32,000 nucleotides of DNA from Thermodesulfobacteriota bacterium (GCA_040755455.1 JBFMAY010000014.1:30308-62307); one strand, 5' to 3'; shown: positions 8,819 through 22,058, numbered from the stretch's first letter. The notes: generated by a model from the letters alone, not told the origin. A program made the numbers and translations.

Positions 8819-11800
8819 TCAAAAACCATCCAGGAGCTGCAGGAGATCTTCGGCCCGCAGCTTGTTGCTCAGGTCGCTGCCTTCAAGGAGACTGTCAGCA
8901 AGTTCGCGCTTGTCCTGATGCAGCCGGAGAATTTTTTCCTCGATGGTGTTTCTGGTGACCAGCCGGTAGACCGTGACCGGGCGGGTCTGGCCGATGCGGT
9001 GGGCCCGGTCCGAGGCCTGGTCCTCCACCGCCGGGTTCCACCAGGGATCCATGTGGATGACGAAATCGGCGGCGGTGAGATTCAGACCCAGCCCGCCTGC
9101 CTTGAGGCTGATGAGGAAGAGATCGCCGTCTCCTGCCTGGAACTCGGCCACCTGTTCCTGGCGTTTGAGCGCCGGGGTGGTGCCGTCCAGGTATTTATAG
9201 GTGATGTTGCGTTCGTCGAGAAAGGCGCGGATAATGTGAAGGTGCCGGGCAAACTGGCTGAAAACCAAGGCCTTGTGCCGGTTTTCAATAAGATCCATGA
9301 TGATGGTGCCGAAAAGCTCGAGTTTGGAGCTTTGGATAGCCGTATCCGGCTGGACCAGCCTGGGATTGCAGCATGCCTGCCGCAGCCGCATGATCTCGGC
9401 CAGAATCTGCATATGCCGGTGGGACGGCGAGGCATCGGTGTGTTCGATTTTCTCCAGGGCGCGGATGCGCAGTGCTTCATAGAAGGCGGTCTCCTCAGGG
9501 CTCATATCGACCTGGAGAACGACCTCGGTCCGCGGCGGCAGTTCCTCCAGGACCTGGCTTTTCAAGCGCCGGAGAATGAAGGGCTGGATCAGTTTTTTTA
9601 ATTTTTTGCGGGCGTTCTTGTCCTTGTCTTTTTCAATGGCCATGGCATAGCGCTGATTGAACTGCTCCAGGGAACCGAGCAGGCCCGGGTTGATGAAGTT
9701 GAAAAGGTTCCACAGTTCTCCCAGGTGGTTTTCGATGGGGGTGCCGGTGGTGATCATCTTGAAATTGCCGTCGAGTTCCATGGCGGCCCTGGAGCGCTTG
9801 GTGGCGATGTTTTTGATGGCTTGGGCCTCGTCGAGCACGATGACTCGCCATTTTTTCCCTGAAAGGAGTTTGTCCTCCTGTTGCAGCAGGCCGTAACTGC
9901 AGATCAGCACGTCAAAAGGGCCAAGGCCGTCCACCAGCTGTTCCCGTTCCTTGCCGCCGAAGATCAAAGTGTGCAGGGTGGGCGCAAAACGGCGGACTTC
10001 CTCCTGCCAGTTCATGCAGACTGAGGTGGGGGCCACCACCAGCGAAGGGCCGTGCGGAGCCTCCTGCAGAATGATGCCCAGGGTCTGTACGGTTTTTCCC
10101 AGACCCATATCGTCGGCCAGACAGGCGCCGACACCCCAGTGTTTGAGCCGGGCCAGCCATTTGAATCCCTCAATCTGGTACTCGCGCAGTTCGGCCTGCA
10201 GGGTTGTCGGCACCTCGCTCTGAAAGGCGCGTGATTCCCGGATGCGCTGCAGCTGCTCCTGCCACTGCTGGTCGGCGGTCACCTGGATGCCGCTTTCCGT
10301 GAAACCTTCCAGGGTGCAGCATGCCAGGGGATGCATGCGCCTCAGCTGCCCGTGGGCTTCGCTAAAGGAGGTCAATTCATCCAGCTGTTTCCGGAATTCC
10401 CGGGACAGGGCGAGGAACTCACCTTTGCCCAGGGGGATGAATCGGCCGGAATTTGCCTGGATCAGTTCCAGCAACGTTTTCATCTCCATCACCTTGTCTT
10501 GGTCGATGGCGAGTTGTCCGTCCAGTTCAAACCAGTTCTGTTTCCGTCTGATATGCAACTGGAAATCCTGGAAGGAGGCATGGTGGCGGATGGCAAGTTT
10601 TTCCCCTTCAGGCCATTCAATGATGACGTCATCCCCCAGGTTCTGGATTTCCGCAAGCACCTCCAGGCAATCCTGCAGATCCTCGATGAACCACTCGCCG
10701 TCCATCCCGCTCAGTCTGGCCAGGGTGGGGCATCGTTCCTCGATCTGCGCGCAGTTTTCTCTTTCCTTGTCAAGGTTGCGGCAGGTTTGCAGGCGTTTGC
10801 CGTGAATCTCGGCAATGACGTTCACCGCCCCCTCGCCGGGATAGAGATAAGGTCCGCCGACGGCAAAAGGCTTCACCAGCATGGAGACCCGGAAGCCGGT
10901 GCCCACCGGCAGCAGCTGCATGATGATCTTGTCCGCGGCCCGCACCTCTTCGATCTCTCTTGAGGTGGCGCCGATATCGGAGTGTATGGTCAGGCAGGAT
11001 GAAAGATTGCCCAGGGTTTCCAGGACCTGTTTTTTGGCGCCTTCCGGAATGCGGAGACCGTCGTCGCCGATGATTGCCGCAATTTTGCGGTGTTTTTCCG
11101 AGATCTCGATAATCCTGAAGCGGGTGGGGGTCTCCCGCACCGCCATCACCTTTTCATCGCCGATGGGTGATGAGAATTCCAGCAGCACCTTGTCCGCTGT
11201 TTGGGTGGCATGCAGTTCCGGTTCACCCCTGGTGAATTCCACCGGCACGGAGGGATGCGCGCTGGAAAAGAGCAGGGGATGGCCGACCAGGGCGGACAGG
11301 GTTTCATCCATGTCAAATTCAAAGGAGGTTTCATGGCTGAACTCCTTTTTGCGCAATGACGCCCTGATTCTCTGGTCCTGCTCGGTGAGGAAGGGGAGAT
11401 TTTCGCCGGCGTGCAAACGTTTCAGTGCCACGGAGCGTCCCTGGCTCCATTTGCCGCTGGCGGTGAGTTTTTGTTCCCTGGGGTGAATGGTGACAAAGCC
11501 GTCCTTGAAGTCCACCAGCCAGACCATTCTGTACTGGGGCGGACCAGCATCCTCATCTTCCAGGCTGACGATATTCAGGGCCTTTAAGGCGCGTTGCCAG
11601 GCTTTTTCATGGGGAAGCACGGCGAGGAGCGAGGTGATGGCCGCTTTGCGGCAGACCGCGACGCTGAAATCCTGATAGGACTCGATTTCAGTGGCCTGAT
11701 AGAGCAGGGCCGCATATTCCATGGCCAGCCAGTCGTAGCCGTTTTCCCTGGCCCGGGTGTAAAATTCATGCAGTTCATCCCGCTGGCCTGCTTCCAGCGT

Positions 11801-12964
11801 GCCGTTGAGCCAGAAGCTGCCAAGCCCCATGAACAGGGCCGTCACCGCGTCTTTCCCCCCCTGCTGCCATATCTGCGAAGTGAAATCCGGCTTGAAGTTT
11901 TCCAGTTTGGCCTTGGTCACCTGCTGGAGAATCCTGTAGGCCGGGAGCAGGGGATTATTGCTCTGCTCCGTTTCCACCGTGGCGATAAAGGAGGAGATGA
12001 CCGGATACTTCCGGTAGTCGCCTGATTTCAGCAGGGCCAGGATAAAGATGAGTCCTTCCATGCCGATGAAAAAAACGTTTTTTGCCTCTTTCTTTATGCG
12101 CAGCTCGATCAGATCTTCCTGGAAGCTGGCAATGGCTGCCGGGTTGTTGCCGAGCAGGAATTCCAGCCAGCCACGCAGGCCGAAGGAGTCAATGTGGTTG
12201 CCGGCCTCGGCAATTTTCAGGCGGGCCGCATCCATATCGGCCCGTAGCAGCTGGTTGAGAATAATCAGATAATAGATGGAGGGCCAGCCCTGCCGCGGAA
12301 TCACCTTCAGGGTGTTTTCATCGGTGAGATAAGCAAGAGGCAGGTCGAAGGATTCAAGGTCGAGGAGGCTTTTTCGGCTTATTTCATGGAGGCTGTGGAG
12401 CTGCAGGTGGGGCGGCAGGGTGCTGAACCACCGGGCCTCAAACGGGTTGTTGACGATTTCCACCAGCGGGGAGTGCAGTTCCGAGGTGTCCGGGCAGTCA
12501 TAATAGCGCAGGAGATGTTCGTTGAAATGATCGAACTTGCCCAGGTACAGACCGATGCGCATTTCCCGTAAATGGCGCAGGCTTTTCTGCAGCAGGGTAT
12601 CGTAGGCCTGCCCATTGGCGGGAAGATGTTTGCCGACGATGCGGGCCATGCGGGCAAAGTTGCCGGCGGTCAGGGCTTTCCTGCTGATGATTTCCACCAT
12701 GAGGGGGTGGCACTGGCAGCGCCAGGTCACGAGATCTTGTTCCTGCAGTTTGCGCAGCATAGCGGATTGCGGCCGCGCCGCGCCGGGCAGGTTTGCATCA
12801 TCGTGCCGGCCGGTAAATTCCTGGAAGCAGCTGATGATGGCGGCAGCGCCGGCGGGCTCGAAAATGATCGAGATGAGCTGGAGCAGTTCCTGCTCTTCCC
12901 TGGCCAGGGCTTCATACTGGGAGAGAAGATGCGTAATTTTCCGGGTGGATGAAAATTTTGCCAT
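8819..12964 (-). CDS. SNF2-family DEAD/DEAH-box helicase with large N-terminal extension
   Basis: The 1381-aa ORF has helicase motifs in its C-terminal roughly 480 aa: LADDMGLGKT (motif I), DEAQAIKN (motif II), GTPIENHLGELWNLFNF, and QASDRAHRIGQTRPVTVYRL (motif VI). The preceding roughly 900 aa are helical or of unknown fold. Part of that region may be the bacterial SNF2 helicase-associated domain. Confidence 0.9.
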   Translation of the reverse strand: MAKFSSTRKITHLLSQYEALAREEQELLQLISIIFEPAGAAAIISCFQEFTGRHDDANLPGAARPQSAMLRKLQEQDLVTWRCQCHPLMVEIISRKALTAGNFARMARIVGKHLPANGQAYDTLLQKSLRHLREMRIGLYLGKFDHFNEHLLRYYDCPDTSELHSPLVEIVNNPFEARWFSTLPPHLQLHSLHEISRKSLLDLESFDLPLAYLTDENTLKVIPRQGWPSIYYLIILNQLLRADMDAARLKIAEAGNHIDSFGLRGWLEFLLGNNPAAIASFQEDLIELRIKKEAKNVFFIGMEGLIFILALLKSGDYRKYPVISSFIATVETEQSNNPLLPAYRILQQVTKAKLENFKPDFTSQIWQQGGKDAVTALFMGLGSFWLNGTLEAGQRDELHEFYTRARENGYDWLAMEYAALLYQATEIESYQDFSVAVCRKAAITSLLAVLPHEKAWQRALKALNIVSLEDEDAGPPQYRMVWLVDFKDGFVTIHPREQKLTASGKWSQGRSVALKRLHAGENLPFLTEQDQRIRASLRKKEFSHETSFEFDMDETLSALVGHPLLFSSAHPSVPVEFTRGEPELHATQTADKVLLEFSSPIGDEKVMAVRETPTRFRIIEISEKHRKIAAIIGDDGLRIPEGAKKQVLETLGNLSSCLTIHSDIGATSREIEEVRAADKIIMQLLPVGTGFRVSMLVKPFAVGGPYLYPGEGAVNVIAEIHGKRLQTCRNLDKERENCAQIEERCPTLARLSGMDGEWFIEDLQDCLEVLAEIQNLGDDVIIEWPEGEKLAIRHHASFQDFQLHIRRKQNWFELDGQLAIDQDKVMEMKTLLELIQANSGRFIPLGKGEFLALSREFRKQLDELTSFSEAHGQLRRMHPLACCTLEGFTESGIQVTADQQWQEQLQRIRESRAFQSEVPTTLQAELREYQIEGFKWLARLKHWGVGACLADDMGLGKTVQTLGIILQEAPHGPSLVVAPTSVCMNWQEEVRRFAPTLHTLIFGGKEREQLVDGLGPFDVLICSYGLLQQEDKLLSGKKWRVIVLDEAQAIKNIATKRSRAAMELDGNFKMITTGTPIENHLGELWNLFNFINPGLLGSLEQFNQRYAMAIEKDKDKNARKKLKKLIQPFILRRLKSQVLEELPPRTEVVLQVDMSPEETAFYEALRIRALEKIEHTDASPSHRHMQILAEIMRLRQACCNPRLVQPDTAIQSSKLELFGTIIMDLIENRHKALVFSQFARHLHIIRAFLDERNITYKYLDGTTPALKRQEQVAEFQAGDGDLFLISLKAGGLGLNLTAADFVIHMDPWWNPAVEDQASDRAHRIGQTRPVTVYRLVTRNTIEEKILRLHQDKRELADSLLEGSDLSNKLRAEDLLQLLDGF

Positions 12965-13158
12965 TTTGGTAGTATACCATAAAATTGCGGTCTGACTTGT
13001 TCATTTTTAGCAGCCAGCATGGGGGAAACCAAAAAAACGAGCGCGTCGCCGCCCGCGGCATGGGCCGGCAGGCAGCAAGGGCCGCCGGTTTTGTCCTGCT
13101 ATGATGATATGTGTGTTTTTTACTGGACAAAGTTTCTTTTTTTCAGTTTGTTCATCAC

Positions 13159-13908
13159 ATGAAAATACATTTTTTGGGGGTTGGCGAGGCCTGCGATGCA
13201 CGCTGTCCCAATACATCGCTGCTTGTTACGGTAGGAAACGGCCGGCGTTTTCTGCTTGACTGCGGCTTTACCGTCCCGCATCTCTATTTTGCCGTAAGCC
13301 TCGACCCGGACGAGCTGGATGCGCTGTGGATTTCCCACTTTCATGGCGATCATTTTTTCGGTGTGCCGCTGCTGCTGCTCAGGTTCTGGGAAATGGGCCG
13401 CCGGAAAAAGCTGGTTATTGCCGGGCCCCGGGGAGTACGGGAAAAAATTGCGGCGGCCATGGAGCTTGCCTACCCGGACTTCATGGCCCGGCTCATGTAT
13501 CACCTTGAATTTGTCGAAATTGAACCGGGAGACGGCCGGGACATTGCCGGCACAGGCTGGCGCACGGCGGAAAATGTCCATTCCGAGCGTTGCCTGGCCT
13601 TGTGTATCGATGACGGCGGCCACCGCATCTTTTACAGCGGGGATGGCCGGCCGACCAGGGAGACGGCGGCTCTGGCCCGGGGCTGCGACCTGATCGTGCA
13701 TGAGGCCTTCCGGCTGGGCGAGGAAGTGGACAACCACGGCAGTGTCAGGGGCTGCCTTGAATTCGCCGGCAGGGCCGGGGTGAGGCACCTTGCCCTGGTG
13801 CATGTGCAGCGCACCTGCCGGGAGACCGCCCAACAAACGGTCGCCGGGCTGGTTCGTGACGGTCTGCATGTTTTTCTGCCGGAACCGGGGGAGCTGTTTT
13901 GTTTATAA
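13159..13908 (+). CDS. MBL-fold metallo-hydrolase (RNase Z/BN-like)
   Basis: MKIHFLGVGEA...LLDCG ... ISHFHGDHFFG (the HxHxDH motif) ... HEAF ... LVH. I chose the ATG at 13159; the track ORF starts at 13111. Confidence 0.85.
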   Translation: MKIHFLGVGEACDARCPNTSLLVTVGNGRRFLLDCGFTVPHLYFAVSLDPDELDALWISHFHGDHFFGVPLLLLRFWEMGRRKKLVIAGPRGVREKIAAAMELAYPDFMARLMYHLEFVEIEPGDGRDIAGTGWRTAENVHSERCLALCIDDGGHRIFYSGDGRPTRETAALARGCDLIVHEAFRLGEEVDNHGSVRGCLEFAGRAGVRHLALVHVQRTCRETAQQTVAGLVRDGLHVFLPEPGELFCL

Positions 13909-15133: not shown

Positions 15134-17968
15134 ATGAGTAACACCAAACCCACGGTGTTTATCAGCTACAGCCACAAGGATGAGGAGTGGAAAAATCAGC
15201 TTCTCCCGCATCTCAAGGCCTTTGAGCAGCAGGGCGATCTGCTGCTCTGGCATGACCGCAGGATCGACACCGGCGCAGACTGGTTTCCGGAGATCGAGGA
15301 GGCGGTGGAAAGGTCACGGGTAGCAGTCTGTATTATCTCAGAAAATTTCCTGGCCTCGGATTTCATTATCAAGGAGGAGGTGCCGGACCTGCTGAAACGG
15401 CGGGAGGCCAAAGATCTGATCATTATGCCTTTGCTTGCTGAGCCCTGCCCGTGGCAAGCCATCCGCTGGCTCAAGGGTATCCAGATGTTTCCCTCGGACA
15501 ACAATTGCCTTGCCGCCATCAGAGGCAAAACAAAGCGGAAACAACTGCTGGCGGATTTTGCCATCAAGGTGGCGGATCAGGCAGTTCCTACGAGATTGGA
15601 TGAGTTGCTTACCGTCCGGAAGTCTTCCACGTGCATTATCAGTCTTTGCGAGACATTCCAGCCCTCTCTTGATTATAGAATTGAGATCTCCCATCTTCCC
15701 GTGACCGGGGTCGAACTCTTTGGCCGCGAGGCGGAGCTTGAACTGTTGGACAATTCCTGGAAAGAGGGCAAAACCAATGTCATCAGTTTCGTGGCCTGGG
15801 GCGGGGTGGGGAAATCCACCCTGATCAACCGTTGGCTCGCCGAGATGGCCATGGACAGCTATCGGGCCGTCGCCCGGGTCTTTGGCTGGTCCTTTTACAG
15901 CCAGGGGACCGGTGAGTGGGTCACCTCGGCGGACCGCTTCATTGCCGAGGCCCTGGCCTGGTTTGGTGATCCGGACCCTACGACAGGCTCACCCTGGGAC
16001 AAGGGCCAGCGCCTGGCAGATCTCATTCGCAAAGAGCGGACTCTTCTGGTGCTGGACGGGCTGGAGCCGCTGCAGGCCGAGCATGACTTTGAAAGAGGCC
16101 GGATCAAGGACCCTGGCCTGGCCGTCCTGATTAAAGAATTGGCAAAAGACAATCCCGGCCTCTGCCTCATCACCACCCGTGAACAGGTGGCTGATCTCAA
16201 ACGCTTCCCGCAAAACGTGCTGGAAAGAAATCTTGAGCAGATATCCGCTCAAGCCGGCCGGGCCCTGTTGCGGGTGGGCGGCGTGCGGGGCACGGACCGG
16301 GGATTGGAGGATGCCTCGCGCGCCTTCGGCAATCATGCCCTGGCCGTCAAGCTCCTGGCCGCCTATCTCCATGCGATCCCAGAACACCACATCAAACACG
16401 CGGCCGATATCCCCGACCTGGATATCCTAGATGACCAGGGGCGACAGCCCCGTCGGGTCATGGCCGCCCTGCTGCAGCATTTGGGGGACTGCCCGGAGGT
16501 GGAGTATCTGCGGATTCTTGGCCTATTTGACCGACCGGCGGACCAGGAGGCCCTGACGGCGCTGCTCACTCCGCCGCCTATCCCGGATTTGACCGGTCAG
16601 ATCATGGCAGTTGCCGAAGGAGATCGCCATGACTGCCTCACCCGCCTGCGACGCCTGGGCCTTCTGGCCCCGGCAAGCAGCCATCGCGTCGGCGATCTGG
16701 ACTGCCATCCCCTGGTGCGGGAGCATATGGCCGACCTCCTCCAAAAGCAATTCCCCCAGGCCTGGCAGCAGGGCAACCTGCGGCTTTACGAGCACTATAA
16801 GGGGATAGCCAAGGAATACCCGGACACCATCGAGGAGATGGCTCCGCTTTTTTACGCCTGCGCCCATGGCTGCCGGGCCGGTAACCAACAGGAGGCGCTG
16901 ATTGAGGTGTATTGGAAACGTATTAAAAGGGGGAATGAGCATTACTGCACGCGAAAACTCGGCGCCTTCGGTTCTGATCTGGCGGCCCTGGCCAACTTTT
17001 TCGACTCCATCTGGGACCGGCCCGCGCCAGGGCTTGCTGAAATGTGGCAGGCTTGGGTCTTGGGCAATGCCGGTTTTCGCTTAAAGGCCCTTGGCAGGCT
17101 GGCCGAGGCAAAGAGGCCAATGCGGGACTGCTTGGAAATGTGCATCCGACAGAGAAATTGGTCGGAGGCGTCAAAAATTACTTCCAACCTCAGCGAGCTC
17201 TTCCTCGACCTGGGCGAGATGGCCTGGGCTGTGGAGTATGGGCAACAAACTGTGGAATTGGCCGCGCGCAGCGGTAATCGGCATTCGCGTGTGATTGGCC
17301 TTACCACCCATGCTGTTTCCCGCCATCAGGCCGGCCAATTGGCCGAGGCCGAAGAGCTGTTTCGTCAGGCTGAAGCCATGCAGCGGGAAGAGCAGCTCGA
17401 CTACCCCATGCTCTACTCACTGCGGGGATTCCAATACTGTGACCTGCTCTTTGATCTTTACCCGCCAACCGAGGTCTGGAAACGGGTGAAGAAGACGTTG
17501 GGCTGGGCGGAAAAGGCAACGGGAGTATCCCTCCTCGACATTGGCCTGGACCACCTCACCATGGGCCGGGCCTGCCAGCGGCTAGGTGAGCCGGTCACTG
17601 CCGCCACCTATCTCGCACAAGCCATAGACTTTTTGCGTAAAGCAAATTTTCAAGAGATTCTCCCACGCGGTCTCCTAGCCCGGGCCGCCTTTTGCCGGGA
17701 GCAGGGGCAACTGAACGCCGCCCGCCGGGATCTGGAGGAGGTCCTGGAGATCGCCGAACCCTGCGGCATGCGTCTCCATCTCACCGACTATCATCTGGAG
17801 AGCTGCCGGCTGGGGCTGGCCGAAAACGAGCTGCCCACTGCCCACGAGCATCTGGACAAGGCGAAAAAACTGGTCGCCGAGACCGGCTACCACCGCCGGG
17901 ACCGGGAGGTTCAGGAACTTGAAAAATTGCTGGCCGCCGCAGATACGGCCGGCAAACAGGCACCGTAA
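15134..17968 (+). CDS. TIR - NB-ARC (STAND P-loop NTPase) - TPR protein
   Basis: TIR: TVFISYSHKDEEW...LLWHDRRIDTGADWFPEIEEAVERSRVAVCIISENFLASDFIIKEEV. NB-ARC: Walker A FVAWGGVGKSTL (K227), Walker B LLVLDGLE (D308), RNBS-B-like LCLITTRE, and a GLPL-like GNHALAV. The C-terminal roughly 400 aa are helical TPR-like repeats. Confidence 0.9.
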   Translation: MSNTKPTVFISYSHKDEEWKNQLLPHLKAFEQQGDLLLWHDRRIDTGADWFPEIEEAVERSRVAVCIISENFLASDFIIKEEVPDLLKRREAKDLIIMPLLAEPCPWQAIRWLKGIQMFPSDNNCLAAIRGKTKRKQLLADFAIKVADQAVPTRLDELLTVRKSSTCIISLCETFQPSLDYRIEISHLPVTGVELFGREAELELLDNSWKEGKTNVISFVAWGGVGKSTLINRWLAEMAMDSYRAVARVFGWSFYSQGTGEWVTSADRFIAEALAWFGDPDPTTGSPWDKGQRLADLIRKERTLLVLDGLEPLQAEHDFERGRIKDPGLAVLIKELAKDNPGLCLITTREQVADLKRFPQNVLERNLEQISAQAGRALLRVGGVRGTDRGLEDASRAFGNHALAVKLLAAYLHAIPEHHIKHAADIPDLDILDDQGRQPRRVMAALLQHLGDCPEVEYLRILGLFDRPADQEALTALLTPPPIPDLTGQIMAVAEGDRHDCLTRLRRLGLLAPASSHRVGDLDCHPLVREHMADLLQKQFPQAWQQGNLRLYEHYKGIAKEYPDTIEEMAPLFYACAHGCRAGNQQEALIEVYWKRIKRGNEHYCTRKLGAFGSDLAALANFFDSIWDRPAPGLAEMWQAWVLGNAGFRLKALGRLAEAKRPMRDCLEMCIRQRNWSEASKITSNLSELFLDLGEMAWAVEYGQQTVELAARSGNRHSRVIGLTTHAVSRHQAGQLAEAEELFRQAEAMQREEQLDYPMLYSLRGFQYCDLLFDLYPPTEVWKRVKKTLGWAEKATGVSLLDIGLDHLTMGRACQRLGEPVTAATYLAQAIDFLRKANFQEILPRGLLARAAFCREQGQLNAARRDLEEVLEIAEPCGMRLHLTDYHLESCRLGLAENELPTAHEHLDKAKKLVAETGYHRRDREVQELEKLLAAADTAGKQAP

Positions 17969-18047: not shown

Positions 18048-18117
18048 CCGTAGGAGCGGGCCATGCCCGCGATCCTTGTGATGCCACGGTTATCGCGGGC
18101 ATGGCCCGCTCCTACGG
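18048..18117. repeat. REP-like nested palindrome (26-bp perfect inverted repeat, 18-nt loop)
   Basis: CCGTAGGAGCGGGCCATGCCCGCGAT (18048-18073) is the exact reverse complement of ATCGCGGGCATGGCCCGCTCCTACGG (18092-18117). Each arm contains its own mini-hairpin, GCGGGC-cat-GCCCGC. The loop segment CCACGGTTA also pairs with TAACCGTGG at 18014-18022. The motif resembles the GTAGGAGCG-type REP elements known from Pseudomonas. Confidence 0.75.
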
Positions 18118-18200: not shown

Positions 18201-19691
18201 ATGCCCTTACCCCAATACGATGAAGTTCATGTCATCTCCGACCTCCACATGGGAGGGGAGAGCGGTTTTCAGATTCTCCGGGAGACCGAAAAACTCGCGG
18301 GTTTTATCCGCTGGGTCGCGGAACAAAAGCCGGACGGCCGGGTGGCCCTGGTGTTGAACGGGGATGTCATCGACACCCTGGCCGAGGAGAGCGGCGGCTA
18401 CATCGCGGTGGACAATGCCGAGGCCGTGGTCAAGCGGATCATGGCCGACCCGGCCTTTGCACCGGTCTGGGCCAGCCTGGCGGACTTTGTCAAAATTGCC
18501 AACCGCACCCTGGTCATGGTGCTCGGCAACCATGATCTGGAGATGTCCTTCCCCGGAGTGCAGCGCCTGGTGGTGGAAAGGCTGGCCGGGGATGATCCCC
18601 TGGCCCGGGCCCGCATCGAGTTTTCCACCATGGGGGCCGGTTTTTCCTGCCTGGTGGGCGGCTCCCGGGTCTTCTGCACCCATGGCAACGAGGTGGACGC
18701 CTGGAACTATACCCGTTACGAGGATCTTGCCAGGGCGGGCCGGCGGCTCAGCAGCGGCCGGTCGCTCAAACCAAGCGAATGGGAGCCCAACGCCGGCACC
18801 ATGATGGTCAAGGACGTCATGAATACGGTAAAAAAAGACTACCCCTGGATCGACCTGTTGAAACCGGAGATGCAGGCCGCGGTGGGGGTGCTCCTGGCCC
18901 TTGACCCCGGCCAGGTGGAGAAAATCAACCGCCTCCTGCCCATCATCGGCGAGAAGGTGGTGGGCAGCATGGAGGTGGATCAACGGCTCTCGGCCGAGGG
19001 TTTCATTGCTCCGGCCAAAAAGGAGGCCCGTCCCGCCTCGGTGGATAGTCTGCTTGGCCCCAGCCTCATGGAGGGACTGCGCAGCGGCGCCGGGGCCAAC
19101 CGTCCCACGGCTGACGCCCTGCTGCTTTCGGCGGAAAGGAAATACAAAACCGGCAGCGCCGTCACCGACCCCCATGACGAAACCCTGGGCACCGGCCAGT
19201 ATCTCTGGGACCGGTTCACCGGCTGGTTCAGAGGGGTCAGCAAGGTCGAGGCCCTGCGCCGGGCACTGAAAGACTGGCTCAAGGATGACCGTACCTTTGA
19301 TATCAAGGACCGGGACGAGACCTGCAAAGAGGTGGTGGCCTCGGTGGGGCAGGGCATTCATTTCCTGGTCACCGGCCACACCCATCTGGAAAGGGCCATT
19401 GACCTGGGCGGCGGCCGTTTCTACTTTAACTGCGGCACCTGGATCCGTTTGCTGAAATTCAGCAAGGCCATGCTGGAAGACGAAACGGCCTTCACGCCGG
19501 TATATGAGCTGCTGGTCAACGGTACAATGGAGAAAATCGACAAAAAGGACTTTAACGGTCAGCCCTTTGTCATGCCCCAGCAGAGCGCGGTCAGCATCAG
19601 GGTTGAAGCGGGGAAGGTGGTGGGCAGACTGCTCCACATAGAGGGAATCGACCCAGTCTCTCCGAAGACAATCCAACAGTTCACGAGGTAA
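18201..19691 (+). CDS. calcineurin-like metallophosphoesterase with large internal insertion
   Basis: MPE motifs occur in order: VISDLHMGG (D14, H16), LNGDVID (D55), LGNHDLE (N110, H111), CTHGNE (H161), VTGHTHLE (H393, H395). About 220 aa with no recognisable motifs lie between H161 and GHTH. Confidence 0.85.
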   Translation: MPLPQYDEVHVISDLHMGGESGFQILRETEKLAGFIRWVAEQKPDGRVALVLNGDVIDTLAEESGGYIAVDNAEAVVKRIMADPAFAPVWASLADFVKIANRTLVMVLGNHDLEMSFPGVQRLVVERLAGDDPLARARIEFSTMGAGFSCLVGGSRVFCTHGNEVDAWNYTRYEDLARAGRRLSSGRSLKPSEWEPNAGTMMVKDVMNTVKKDYPWIDLLKPEMQAAVGVLLALDPGQVEKINRLLPIIGEKVVGSMEVDQRLSAEGFIAPAKKEARPASVDSLLGPSLMEGLRSGAGANRPTADALLLSAERKYKTGSAVTDPHDETLGTGQYLWDRFTGWFRGVSKVEALRRALKDWLKDDRTFDIKDRDETCKEVVASVGQGIHFLVTGHTHLERAIDLGGGRFYFNCGTWIRLLKFSKAMLEDETAFTPVYELLVNGTMEKIDKKDFNGQPFVMPQQSAVSIRVEAGKVVGRLLHIEGIDPVSPKTIQQFTR

Positions 19692-19695
19692 CCAT

Positions 19696-21648
19696 ATGTC
19701 CACGATCCACAACGTCAAACTGGAAATCCTGCGGCCCGGCCCGGCCCACAACCAGCTCCTTTCCCCGCTGACCCCTTATCTGGTCCTCTGCGGGGCGGAC
19801 GGCCCGGTGACCGTGCACCTGCCTTTTGAACAGAGGCAGCTCCTCATGCGACTGGAGCGGCTGCGCTATTCCAGCCAGGGAACAGCCATTGCCGCCGGGC
19901 AACGGGAGGCCGAGCTGCACGAACTGGGTGAGACCCTCGGCCGGATATTCGGCCAGGTTCCCGCCCTGCTGGCCGAACTCGGCAGTGTCCGGTCGCAAAC
20001 GGGAAAGCTCGTGCATCTGCGGCTGTCGCTCTCCGCCTTTGAACTGGCCCTGTTGCCATTTGAGACGGCCATTGCCGCCGACGGTTTTCCCGGCTCCGGC
20101 TCCCCCCTCTTTCTGCAATCAAACCTGCCCATCACCCTGACCAGGGAGGTGCGCCGCGGCCGGCCGCTGCCGGTGGAATGGAATCGGCCGCCCCGCATCC
20201 TCTTTATCTTCGCCTCGCCCGGGGGGCTGGCGGCGGTGCCTTACGAGCAGCATCTGCTGGCGCTGCGCCGTGCCATTGACCCGTGGGTGAAGATCCTGGA
20301 CAAAGAGGAGGAACGCCTGGCCGAGGTGAAAAATATCCTCACCGTGCTGCCCGAGGCGACTCTTGAGCAGATCCGGCAGGCCTGCATGGATACCGAATAC
20401 ACCCATGTCCATATCCTGGCCCATGGCGCCCCCTATGATCATGCCGGCGACCAGCATTACGGGCTTGCCCTGTGCAGCAGCGACAAGCCAGCGGAAATCG
20501 ATGTGGTTGACGGCGAGCGGCTCTCCATCGCCCTAACCACGGACCGGGCCTCGGCCTGCGGGGCCCGGAAGCGGCCCACCGTGGTCTCGCTGGCGACCTG
20601 TGATTCCGGTAATGTGCGCTCCGTGCTCATCCCGGGCGGCAGCATCGCCCACGAACTGCACGCAGCCGGCATCCCCTGGGTTTTTGCCTCCCAGTTTCCC
20701 CTGTGGATGCGTTCCTCCACCATCTTCACCGAGGTTCTCTATAAACGTTTGCTCAAAGGGGCCGATCCCCGCTGCGTGCTGCACGAACTGCGGCAACGGC
20801 TGCGCACCTCCTGCCAGGAGACCCACGACTGGGCGAGCATCGTGGCCTATGCCGCCGTGCCCTGGGATTTTGAAAACCAGGTAAGTGACTTTCGTGATGA
20901 GCAGACCCGCCGGCGGATCGAAACCAGATTCGCCCGCATCGATGATCTGCTCAAGGCCGGGAAGTCCGAGGGCCAGGATGAGAAAACGGTTACAGGGGAG
21001 ATGGCTGAGCTCTGTGCGGCCATTCGTGAGGAACTCAAGACATGGCGGGAAGAACCGGTCGCCCAATCTTCCGGCAAGGAGCTGGCTGAACGTCTGGGTG
21101 TGACTGCTGCCAGCGAAAAACGGATCGGTATCGCCTATGACCAGGTACCGGACAAAAAGAAAGAAAGCCTGGATGCCTACCGGAAATCCTGCGAATTCTA
21201 TAAAAAAGCCATTGAGGCCGAGCCTTCCAATCACTGGGTCATCACCCAGTATCTGTCAATGCTTGCGGTCAAAAATCGGGCGGAATACGGTGACATGACC
21301 GAACTGGTAAAGGAATACGGCCACTGGTGGTTCACAGCCCGGCAGATCAGCGGCTGGCATTTGCTCACCAAGAGTGGGGAAGACCTGGCCTGGGCCTACG
21401 GCACACTGGCCGAACTGGAAATGTTGGGTGCTCTTTATGGCGGCGAGGAATTCGACAGGCAGGAGGCTAAGGAGGAGATTACTCGCTATTGCGGCCAAAT
21501 CCTGCAAATCTGCGGTCCCCATGGGTTTCCCGTAGAATCAACCGCGCGGCAATTCCGCCGCTATGTGGAGATCTGGCAACACGAGAAATGGGATGATCTT
21601 GCCAAGACTGCCCTTGCCGCCTTCGGGGGGAGTGATGTATGCTCTTAA
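19696..21648 (+). CDS. CHAT-domain (caspase-fold) protease with helical TPR-like C-terminal region
   Basis: The catalytic dyad context is intact: THVHILAHGA (His243, nt 20422-20424) and VVSLATCDSG (Cys302, nt 20599-20601). The upstream LRLSLSAFELALLPFETA and PRILFIFASP segments are typical of CHAT. The ATG lies 4 nt after the MPE stop, with GAGG inside the end of the MPE ORF. Confidence 0.85.
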   Translation: MSTIHNVKLEILRPGPAHNQLLSPLTPYLVLCGADGPVTVHLPFEQRQLLMRLERLRYSSQGTAIAAGQREAELHELGETLGRIFGQVPALLAELGSVRSQTGKLVHLRLSLSAFELALLPFETAIAADGFPGSGSPLFLQSNLPITLTREVRRGRPLPVEWNRPPRILFIFASPGGLAAVPYEQHLLALRRAIDPWVKILDKEEERLAEVKNILTVLPEATLEQIRQACMDTEYTHVHILAHGAPYDHAGDQHYGLALCSSDKPAEIDVVDGERLSIALTTDRASACGARKRPTVVSLATCDSGNVRSVLIPGGSIAHELHAAGIPWVFASQFPLWMRSSTIFTEVLYKRLLKGADPRCVLHELRQRLRTSCQETHDWASIVAYAAVPWDFENQVSDFRDEQTRRRIETRFARIDDLLKAGKSEGQDEKTVTGEMAELCAAIREELKTWREEPVAQSSGKELAERLGVTAASEKRIGIAYDQVPDKKKESLDAYRKSCEFYKKAIEAEPSNHWVITQYLSMLAVKNRAEYGDMTELVKEYGHWWFTARQISGWHLLTKSGEDLAWAYGTLAELEMLGALYGGEEFDRQEAKEEITRYCGQILQICGPHGFPVESTARQFRRYVEIWQHEKWDDLAKTALAAFGGSDVCS

Positions 21649-21740: not shown

Positions 21741-22058
21741 TTGAGTAAGCCGGTGACAAAGATCAACACCCCCTTCGGGGAGTATGAGCCGCGGATTGCC
21801 GGCCGCGACCAACTGGAGCGCGCGGCGGCGGTCATGGGCGAGGCGGTGGAGGCCATCGCCCGGGTCAACCATGACCGGTGGGCGGCGGAGAGGATTGCCC
21901 AGGGCTGGCGCTACGGGGAAGAGCGGGATGACGCCGGAAAACTGCATCCGGATCTAGTCCCTTACGAGCACCTGACGGAAGCGGAAAAACGAATCGATGT
22001 GGAGGGGGCCAAGGCCATCGTTGCCGAACTGCTCAGGCTTGGCATTCTTCGGCAATGA
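21741..22058 (+). CDS. stand-alone RyR-domain protein
   Basis: AIARVNHDRWAAERIAQGWRYGEERDDAGKLHPDLVPYEHLTEAEKRIDVEGAKAIV matches the RyR repeat consensus (hd.Wa......GW.yG...d...k.hP.LvPy.eL.e.eK..dr). TTG start at 21741 with AAGGA upstream; an alternative ATG lies at 21834. Confidence 0.75.
   Translation: MSKPVTKINTPFGEYEPRIAGRDQLERAAAVMGEAVEAIARVNHDRWAAERIAQGWRYGEERDDAGKLHPDLVPYEHLTEAEKRIDVEGAKAIVAELLRLGILRQ

Follow-up and report, generated by a model that had tools for sequence, protein, structure and literature searches.

Receptors that combine a TIR domain, a nucleotide-binding domain and tetratricopeptide repeats (TPRs) have an architecture common to plants and bacteria (review, PMC9153377). 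In plants they are the TNPs (TIR-NBARC-TPR, formerly XTNX), such as ZmTNP-IIa of maize and TN17 and TN21 of Arabidopsis, and ZmTNP-IIa needs its catalytic Glu as well as its P-loop to cause cell death (PMC9806590). TIR-NB-TPR proteins are also known from bacteria and fungi, and their NB domains retrieve TNPs by BLAST; this NB affinity is reported for some of the bacterial proteins, mainly actinobacterial ones, and the TIRs of TNPs group away from bacterial TIRs (PMC9806590). Here we describe a protein of this kind from a Thermodesulfobacteriota bacterium, found in a stretch of 32,000 nucleotides (GCA_040755455.1 JBFMAY010000014.1:30308-62307) which as a whole is referred to as the window. The gene at window positions 15134-17968 on the plus strand encodes an intact bacterial protein consisting of a TIR domain, a STAND (signal transduction ATPase having numerous domains) NTPase and a TPR array. 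With a probability of roughly 0.55, we read this protein as a single-protein, self-contained STAND receptor of the Avs and plant TNP type, which gates a TIR NADase as its terminal output.

Cell-suicide immune receptors of this architecture are already known in plants and bacteria, and the closest named analogue is the plant TNP. The window protein has the identical domain order, and shares with the TNPs the catalytic Glu in the TIR, an Apaf-1-type NTPase bearing P-loop, TTR and MHD-type motifs, TPRs instead of leucine-rich repeats (LRRs), high conservation and low copy number. Unlike the TNPs, the window family is prokaryotic and has no N-terminal 'X' extension. Furthermore, plant TNPs are reported to keep the GLPL motif, whereas the window family has a D-G-x-E Walker B and no GLPL proline.

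Other described systems resemble the window protein in part. The plant TNL resistosomes RPP1 and ROQ1 share the fold of the TIR and of the NOD (nucleotide-binding oligomerization domain), the conserved catalytic Glu and the expected oligomerisation-activated TIR NADase, but their sensor is an LRR plus C-JID rather than a TPR array, and prokaryotes have no EDS1-type downstream pathway. Avs (AVAST) proteins, antiviral STANDs found in bacteria and archaea, share the single-gene unit, the swappable toxic N-terminus (TIR, nuclease or purine nucleoside phosphorylase, PNP), the STAND NTPase and the large TPR-like sensor, as well as a wide, patchy distribution according to a 2026 survey of prokaryotic STAND proteins, which describes 589 clades, roughly 90 families, TPR-like sensors and modular effectors (PMC13581612). 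Unlike Avs, the window protein has no PADLOC Avs match and a modest defence-island signal. The group of PH0952, MalT and Apaf-1 provides the best structural matches, both for the NOD and for the NOD followed by a helical arm and TPRs, and has the same layout of nucleotide-binding domain (NBD), helical domain (HD), winged-helix domain (WHD), arm and repeats. These proteins nevertheless differ from the window protein in that they carry DNA-binding or CARD effectors and act in transcription or apoptosis, and at the sequence level none of them matches the family NOD profile significantly (best E 0.057). Finally, Thoeris ThsB is the top PADLOC match of the window TIR (8.7e-20). ThsB proteins consist of little more than a TIR and share their operons with a dedicated effector that the signal activates, whereas the window TIR forms one protein with its own STAND sensor and no partner gene is conserved.

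Current concepts are unchanged by this protein, since TIR-NB-TPR proteins of bacteria, and the way in which they probably work, have been described before. It adds a large, unusually uniform, archaea-spanning family to the prokaryotic STAND receptors with TIR outputs, and no model in the 2023 PADLOC library detects this TIR-STAND-TPR family beyond its TIR. The domain order is a prokaryotic mirror of the plant TNPs, which among plant TIR proteins are both the most conserved and the least understood, and a tractable bacterial homologue could help to find the ligands of TPR-type TIR receptors. As the sensor is conserved, a search for its ligand by co-expression with phage genes is realistic. In a further reading, of low probability, the uniform prokaryotic family would be the direct counterpart of land-plant TNPs and would sense the same conserved ligand.

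Domain architecture and the TIR active site

The coding sequence is complete and forms an uninterrupted open reading frame (ORF) of 944 amino acids plus stop, with an ATG start (15134-17968, plus strand), as supported by the ORF list, the match to the family length and the structural model. The N-terminus agrees with the family consensus MxxPTVFISYSH, and the length and both ends are consistent with the range of 920-975 amino acids among relatives. Scans for promoters and terminators gave no signal exceeding the shuffled expectation. To measure residue conservation, 50 full-length relatives belonging to many phyla were aligned. The full-length structure was predicted by AlphaFold2 from the family alignment, with a mean predicted local distance difference test score (pLDDT) of 85.1 and a predicted TM-score (pTM) of 0.73, and a separate model of the NOD reached a pLDDT of 78.9. 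All domains given below are encoded on the plus strand.

The TIR domain covers residues 6-150 (15149-15583) and is recognized by Pfam TIR_2 (6.8e-15, 56.1 bits vs a cut-off of 28, residues 8-117), by Pfam TIR (2.1e-9, 37.9 bits vs a cut-off of 21.3) and by the ThsB-type TIR model of PADLOC that is its top match there. The family TIR profile also matches PDB sequences, among them the plant TIRs AtTIR, Roq1, RPV1, SNC1, RUN1 and L6 and the bacterial NADase TIRs AbTIR and Cat1. The predicted catalytic Glu, E81, and its neighbour E82 (15374-15379) lie within FLASDFIIKEEV, residues 72-83. In the HMMER alignment E81 stands opposite the Glu of 'SWCLDEL' in Arabidopsis AtTIR (3jrn), with S75 and F77 opposite the plant Ser and Trp, and the family context S75-x-F77-[C/I/V]78-x-K80-E81 parallels the plant S-x-W-C-x-x-E. 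The placement of E81 is based on this alignment together with the secondary structure of the full-length model, in which it sits in helix 76-91 after the central strand (strand C) at 61-68. S75, F77, E81 and E82 are invariant in 50/50 relatives. The TIR has the catalytic prerequisite, E81, which is under strict selection, and it is probably an NAD-cleaving domain.

A flexible linker at residues 151-190 (15584-15703), with pLDDT <50 and predicted disorder at residues 154-176, connects the TIR to the NTPase. The NBD occupies residues 191-370 (15704-16243) and was delimited by motif coordinates, invariant residues and sub-threshold matches to AAA_16, NACHT and NB-ARC. Its motifs follow in the order LFGRE (195-199), Walker A GGVGKST (223-229, nt 15800-15820), Walker B LLVLDGLE (304-311, of which LLVLDG at 304-309 is nt 16043-16060) and the sensor-1 motif LITTRE (345-350, nt 16166-16183), which contains R349. 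The HD-WHD region, residues 371-540 (16244-16753), was assigned from the secondary structure of the model, column frequencies and structure matches. It holds G399-N-H-A402-L-A-V at the GxP/GLPL position (GNHALAV, residues 399-405, nt 16328-16348) and D-C-H525-P526-L-V-R-E at the MHD-like position. The invariant NTPase residues are G223, G224, G226, K227, D308, G309, E311, R349, A402, A404, H525 and P526, along with F196, G197 and R198 of LFGRE. Since residues in each of the quoted motifs are invariant across the 50 full-length relatives, these are not chance strings.

A helical arm with approximate boundaries at residues 541-632 (16754-17029) lies between the WHD and the repeats, as indicated by helices 541-620 in the model and by the match to PH0952. 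The C-terminal TPR array, residues 633-944 (17030-17965), is the presumed ligand sensor. It is matched by Pfam TPR_12 (1.2e-11), TPR_MalT and TPR_10, with several Pfam TPR families across residues 640-917, and is modelled as 16 paired helices with pLDDT mostly >90, for which Foldseek returned LGN, Rap and MalT domain III. For the full-length model, the best structural match is the archaeal NOD-arm-TPR protein PH0952 (6mfv, E 1.5e-11), followed by RPP1, matched across TIR plus NOD, and then by Apaf-1 and CED-4. The TIR and NTPase region superposes on RPP1 over 575-595 columns (E about 7e-7, identity 16-17%).

The first-pass annotation of this DNA had proposed the ORF, the motif strings, a Glu pair at the position of the catalytic Glu and a sensor of TPR rather than LRR type, and the present data agree with all of these. 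Each string was found where it had been placed and is conserved in relatives; E81 pairs with the Glu in the SWCLDEL segment of the plant TIR, is placed by the model in the helix that follows strand C, and is invariant; and the Pfam TPR families and the paired-helix array in the model identify the sensor as TPR. The protein had also been called plant-TNL-like. The superposition of its TIR and NTPase on RPP1 supports this in part, but the TPR sensor makes 'plant-TNP-like' the better label.

Effector exchange and the probable output

In about a dozen loci, the family match begins only past the TIR and another N-terminus is present. Three loci (L063, L078 and L085) have PNP_UDP_1 in place of the TIR and two (L070 and L077) have Mrr_cat, a Mrr-type restriction endonuclease domain, all on a retained NOD-TPR chassis (~45% identity). 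Two loci combine the TIR with HATPase_c_4 (L060 and L073), and another member has a ParA-like module added to the TIR. The 164-residue N-terminus of L082 is without a Pfam match and might represent a new effector domain. When the NOD-TPR chassis was placed in a neighbour-joining tree, the swapped variants were nested among TIR-bearing branches, and the PNP variants occurred in two separate places. Our main argument for the TIR as a terminal toxic output is that it is swapped for a nuclease or a PNP on a constant sensor. PNP-type domains are said to cleave ATP in anti-phage systems, as reportedly found by Rousset and colleagues in 2023. According to the 2026 survey, swappable N-terminal toxic domains are the signature of defence STANDs (PMC13581612).

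No conserved neighbours were found in 6 sampled contigs, where the surroundings of the gene vary by locus, or in 79 reference-genome loci, and clustering of 688 flanking ORFs showed no shared neighbour except family paralogues. The gene therefore behaves as a single-gene unit. In its combination of a single gene with modular defence-type N-terminal effectors, the family is Avs-like.

The family has >4,900 relatives in a large protein collection, of which the best 120 are all full-length with ~50-77% identity. In species-representative genomes there are at least 551 loci in many bacterial phyla and in archaea of methanogen type. Among the loci listed, the bacteria include Acidobacteriota, Planctomycetota, Nitrospirota, Nitrospinota, Chloroflexota, Bacteroidota, Desulfobacterota, Deferribacteres and Clostridia, and the archaea include Methanosarcinales, Methanoperedens and anaerobic methanotrophic archaea (ANME). 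One cultured member is Desulfobacter curvatus DSM 3379 (L020), of the Desulfobacterota. Among 45 distant members, taken from the top-scoring matches and biased to more similar ones, the mean pairwise identity is 74% for the NBD, 67% for the HD-WHD, 65% for the arm, 63% for the TIR and 58% for the TPR array. Several genomes have two copies. Two tandem copies are found in Desulfobotulus (L016), and on a Nitrospirae contig (L024:5260-21100) three tandem paralogues surround a large CHAT gene; one of these paralogues has a ParA/MinD-like ATPase fused N-terminal of the TIR.

What the data show is the domain layout, the invariance of the catalytic and switch residues, the kinship of the NOD by predicted structure, the organisation as a single gene and the replacement of the N-terminal domain by other toxic modules. 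We infer that the TIR is an NADase, that the receptor oligomerises, what kind of trigger it has and that it acts against phages, and the mechanism could run as follows. In the resting state, the NBD-HD-WHD would hold ADP in a closed form to which K227, R349 and H525 contribute, and the arm and TPR array would prevent the switch from opening, in the manner of PH0952, MalT and Apaf-1. Binding of a conserved ligand to the TPR array might then release the autoinhibition, whereupon ADP would be exchanged for ATP and the NODs would oligomerise. This would cluster the N-terminal TIRs and assemble active sites around E81. The clustered TIRs would be expected to cleave NAD+. Most likely this cleavage is itself the final output and arrests the cell (abortive infection), rather than producing a signal that a dedicated partner reads. 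Precedents are the plant TNLs and TNPs, with ZmTNP-IIa dependent on its Glu and P-loop, and the Avs proteins.

Several observations weigh against a TIR NADase receptor in defence. The closest defence model of the TIR is the signal-producing ThsB type and, given this likeness, a signalling product of the TIR is also possible. The family TIR profile also matches TLR1/2/6/10, with TLR1/6/10 among its best sequence matches, and TLR1 retains the same Glu in the alignment. To our knowledge, no NADase activity has been reported for TLR TIRs, including that of TLR1. Because TLR1 keeps the Glu without such reported activity, the catalytic Glu is necessary but not sufficient. The TPR sensor is unusually uniform across phyla (the 58% identity given above), and the 140 immediate neighbours at 37 loci are mostly housekeeping genes with, in raw counts, a modest defence signal. 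A minority of these neighbours match defence models, with 2-4 ORFs per model (PtuA/AriA/AbiLi-like ATPases, mad2/3, NsnB and extra TIRs). No full-length relatives were found in plasmid and phage collections. None of the PADLOC v2 models of Avs1-5, bNACHT or other STAND defence systems matched the protein, the PADLOC matches being at the TIR level only (ThsB1, SAVED_TIR, PDC-S66 and bSEFIR) apart from one weak TPR match. Lastly, no biochemical or phage experiments on the TIR-STAND-TPR family were found in the literature.

Some of these points would be expected of a non-immune regulatory or stress sensor of a conserved endogenous metabolite or protein, whose TIR either slows metabolism through NAD+ or is a scaffold without catalysis. 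Two STAND regulators, MalT and PH0952, are not immune receptors, PH0952, a putative transcription factor, is also the nearest structure to the full-length model, and defence and non-defence STAND clades are interspersed. A sensor uniform across bacterial phyla and archaea, mostly housekeeping flanks, absence of the gene from the plasmid and phage collections searched, and scaffold TIRs of the TLR type among the top sequence matches also fit such a role. Nevertheless, we regard it as unlikely. E81 and its S-x-F-C-x-K-E context are invariant, the protein lacks any output domain of a regulatory kind, such as one that binds DNA, and only a toxic output makes sense of the swap of the TIR for a restriction-type nuclease or a PNP. 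Tandem paralogue clusters, a patchy spread across phyla and domains that resembles horizontal gene transfer, and the neighbours matching PtuA/AriA/AbiLi-type ATPases, mad2/3 and extra TIRs also speak against a purely regulatory sensor.

Position of the NTPase within the STAND superfamily

The invariant K227, D308, R349 and H525 and an NBD-HD-WHD arrangement that matches known STAND structures identify the NTPase as a STAND protein. The first-pass annotation went further and placed it in the NB-ARC clade rather than among generic AAA+ proteins. Pfam NB-ARC (PF00931) scores 15.5 bits vs a cut-off of 23.5 in a match restricted to positions 14-107 of a profile of 248, and just 2 of the 120 listed relatives have a precomputed PF00931 match. 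NACHT (23.6 bits vs a cut-off of 26.7) and AAA_16 (24.5 bits) are sub-threshold yet both score above NB-ARC. Across 15 family NODs, the best E-values are 1.3e-8 for NACHT, 3.1e-7 for AAA_16 and 3.7e-6 for NB-ARC, all confined to the NBD core, and a profile of the 15 NOD sequences found nothing significant among all PDB sequences (best E 0.057, P-loop only). As the matches to NACHT, AAA_16 and NB-ARC are all weak and overlapping, sequence cannot assign the NTPase to a clade.

The motifs are similarly divided. The NB-ARC landmarks that are present and conserved are the P-loop GGVGKST, RNBS-B LITTR349 and the WHD His in H525-P-L-V-R-E. A P-loop, a T-T-R motif and a WHD His are also compatible with other STAND clades, and NACHT proteins too have a T-T-R/T-S-R sensor-1 motif like LITTRE. 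Ahead of the P-loop, the LFGRE motif coincides with the beginning of the Pfam AAA_16 profile and corresponds to the hhGRExE motif common to many STAND NTPases. Two NB-ARC landmarks are missing. The Walker B is D308-G309-[LM]-E311 instead of D-D, with G309 and E311 invariant, and D-G-x-E resembles the Walker B of NACHT proteins. At the GLPL position, which was lined up by eye, the Pro is replaced by the invariant A402.

In a structure search with the NOD-only model, the top matches were the wheat G10 CNL resistosome, Apaf-1, PH0952, CED-4, MalT and NRC1/2/4, with E-values from 1.8e-7 to 1e-4. Query TM-scores (TMq) were 0.57-0.60 for Apaf-1, 0.60 for MalT, 0.55-0.56 for tomato NRC1/NRC2 and 0.51 for PH0952, and ORC/Cdc6 proteins were interleaved among the matches. 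The top 50 contained one probable NACHT-type chain, at rank 35, which comes from the cytoplasmic lattice of mouse eggs, where it is an unnamed subunit; the search with the full-length model returned no NACHT-type chain. The authors of the PH0952 structure consider it sister to the clade of APAF1 and put MalT at the base (PMC6468293). In our reading of the predicted fold, the NTPase would lie on the Apaf-1/PH0952/MalT side of the STAND superfamily and not with NACHT.

The proposed NB-ARC assignment can thus be kept only in part. The check by structure prediction revealed the expected resemblance to Apaf-1, CED-4 and plant NB-ARC proteins, but PH0952 and MalT match equally well, and the sub-threshold Pfam NB-ARC score, the D-G-x-E Walker B and the missing GLPL Pro speak against the narrower placement. 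The GNHALAV string, described earlier as lying at the GLPL position, is present and conserved, but with A402 where the proline should be. Strict NB-ARC membership is, for all of these reasons together, not demonstrated.

Genes flanking the receptor

Downstream of the receptor gene in the window, a metallophosphoesterase of 496 amino acids (18201-19691, plus strand) is followed after 4 bp by a CHAT protease of 650 amino acids (19696-21648, plus strand), and directly after the CHAT gene by an RyR-domain protein of 105 amino acids (21741-22058, plus strand; Pfam 2.1e-19). In L001, L008, L088 and L089, too, an RyR ORF comes after the CHAT gene. The phosphoesterase gene starts 25-34 bp past the TIR-STAND stop codon in L008, L088 and L009. 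A different CHAT fusion lies 73 bp past the TIR-STAND gene in L001 and has a homologue in the L024 cluster; this protein of ~1,800 amino acids is encoded directly downstream of the TIR-STAND gene in both (L001:10998-16427 and L024:14186-19534). The L001 protein has DUF7379, alpha/beta-hydrolase and LCAT-like, faint TPR-S and CHAT matches, and the L024 copy was identified by homology. The loci with a CHAT association lie on two neighbouring branches of the family tree.

The pair also exists independently of the receptor. The phosphoesterase family has 939 matches at E <= 1e-10, including the cultured Methylocaldum, Nitrosomonas, Methylomicrobium and Desulfosediminicola. In 4/4 diverse genomes (L090-L093), CHAT follows the phosphoesterase with a gap of 1-4 bp and no TIR or STAND gene is nearby. 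Together with L087, which has the phosphoesterase-CHAT pair without a TIR-STAND gene, the pair is TIR-free in 5/5 independent loci. Conversely, the pair or a CHAT gene lies beside the family in 3/79 reference-genome loci, to which iterative CHAT and phosphoesterase profiles added none. In our view, metallophosphoesterase and CHAT form an autonomous module of two genes, which stands beside the receptor in one lineage. A functional linkage as a general property of the family is rejected, given that the pair recurs without TIR-STAND and is associated with it in 3/79 loci only. PADLOC has no phosphoesterase model and gives only a partial SAVED_CHAT match for the protease, and the pair could by itself constitute a conflict system that is not yet catalogued.

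A Thoeris-like three-gene system might still operate in the lineage of the window, in which the STAND-gated TIR makes a nucleotide messenger (e.g., a cyclic ADP-ribose isomer) that activates the adjacent CHAT protease, while the metallophosphoesterase would shape or degrade the nucleotide signal. If true, this would be a receptor-gated Thoeris-like pathway with a caspase-like protease as executioner, acting through the phosphoesterase-CHAT(-RyR) module. The operon-like spacing of 25-34 bp in three loci, the recurrence of two different CHAT architectures downstream of the receptor on neighbouring branches, and ThsB as the top PADLOC match of the TIR are consistent with it, as is the precedent of type IV Thoeris, in which a TIR signal activates a caspase-like protease. 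The CHAT protein also has a weak TPR-S match (E 0.0022), but at 19 bits vs a cut-off of 27.6 this is sub-threshold, and TPR-S is not among the precomputed Pfam matches of the four CHAT homologues in L090-L093. A further point in favour is a gene for DUF4062, a TIR-like NADase, near the pair in L087, a locus which, like the other four, is without a TIR-STAND gene. We consider this pathway decidedly unlikely, as the pair is autonomous in 4/4 genomes and the association in just 3/79 reference loci falls short of the consistent operon of Thoeris. Moreover, the swaps of TIR to PNP and of TIR to Mrr favour a terminal effector, and in the window itself a gap of 232 bp with a 26-nt palindrome separates the genes.

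This gap looks like an insertion because the gap in relatives is merely 25-34 bp. It contains a perfect 26-nt inverted repeat (18048-18073 and 18092-18117) with an 18-nt spacer, each arm of which contains the inner palindrome GCGGGC-CAT-GCCCGC. No other copy of the repeat was found in the window, and it is absent from 89 related loci.

That the TIR acts mainly on nucleic acids rather than NAD+, as the 2',3'-cyclic nucleotide monophosphate synthetase or nuclease activity reported for some plant TIRs might suggest, is highly improbable: plant TIRs are the best PDB matches, the Mrr nuclease that replaces the TIR in some relatives makes a DNA- or RNA-directed output compatible with the chassis, and no examined feature separates such activity from NADase activity, but the bacterial TIRs linked to STAND, CBASS and Argonaute proteins that have been characterised to date deplete NAD+.

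The DUF4062 protein in L087 (L087:4103-5029, plus strand) has 308 amino acids (Pfam 1.5e-21) and is encoded ~1.5 kb upstream of the phosphoesterase-CHAT pair, with a response-regulator/kinase-like gene between. DUF4062 is described as a TIR-like NADase in a 2026 preprint. Two genes upstream of the receptor, an MBL-fold (metallo-beta-lactamase) hydrolase is encoded at 13111-13908 on the plus strand. It has a weak, sub-threshold match to the family of the anti-Pycsar nuclease Apyc1 (1.3e-5, 25 bits vs a cut-off of 50), which its orthologue in L001 also has as a precomputed match, and it is probably an ordinary MBL hydrolase. Further upstream, at 8819-12964 on the minus strand, lies a gene for a SNF2-family helicase of 1,381 amino acids, whose N-terminal ~900 residues are without a Pfam match and which is syntenic in L001, L008 and L088.

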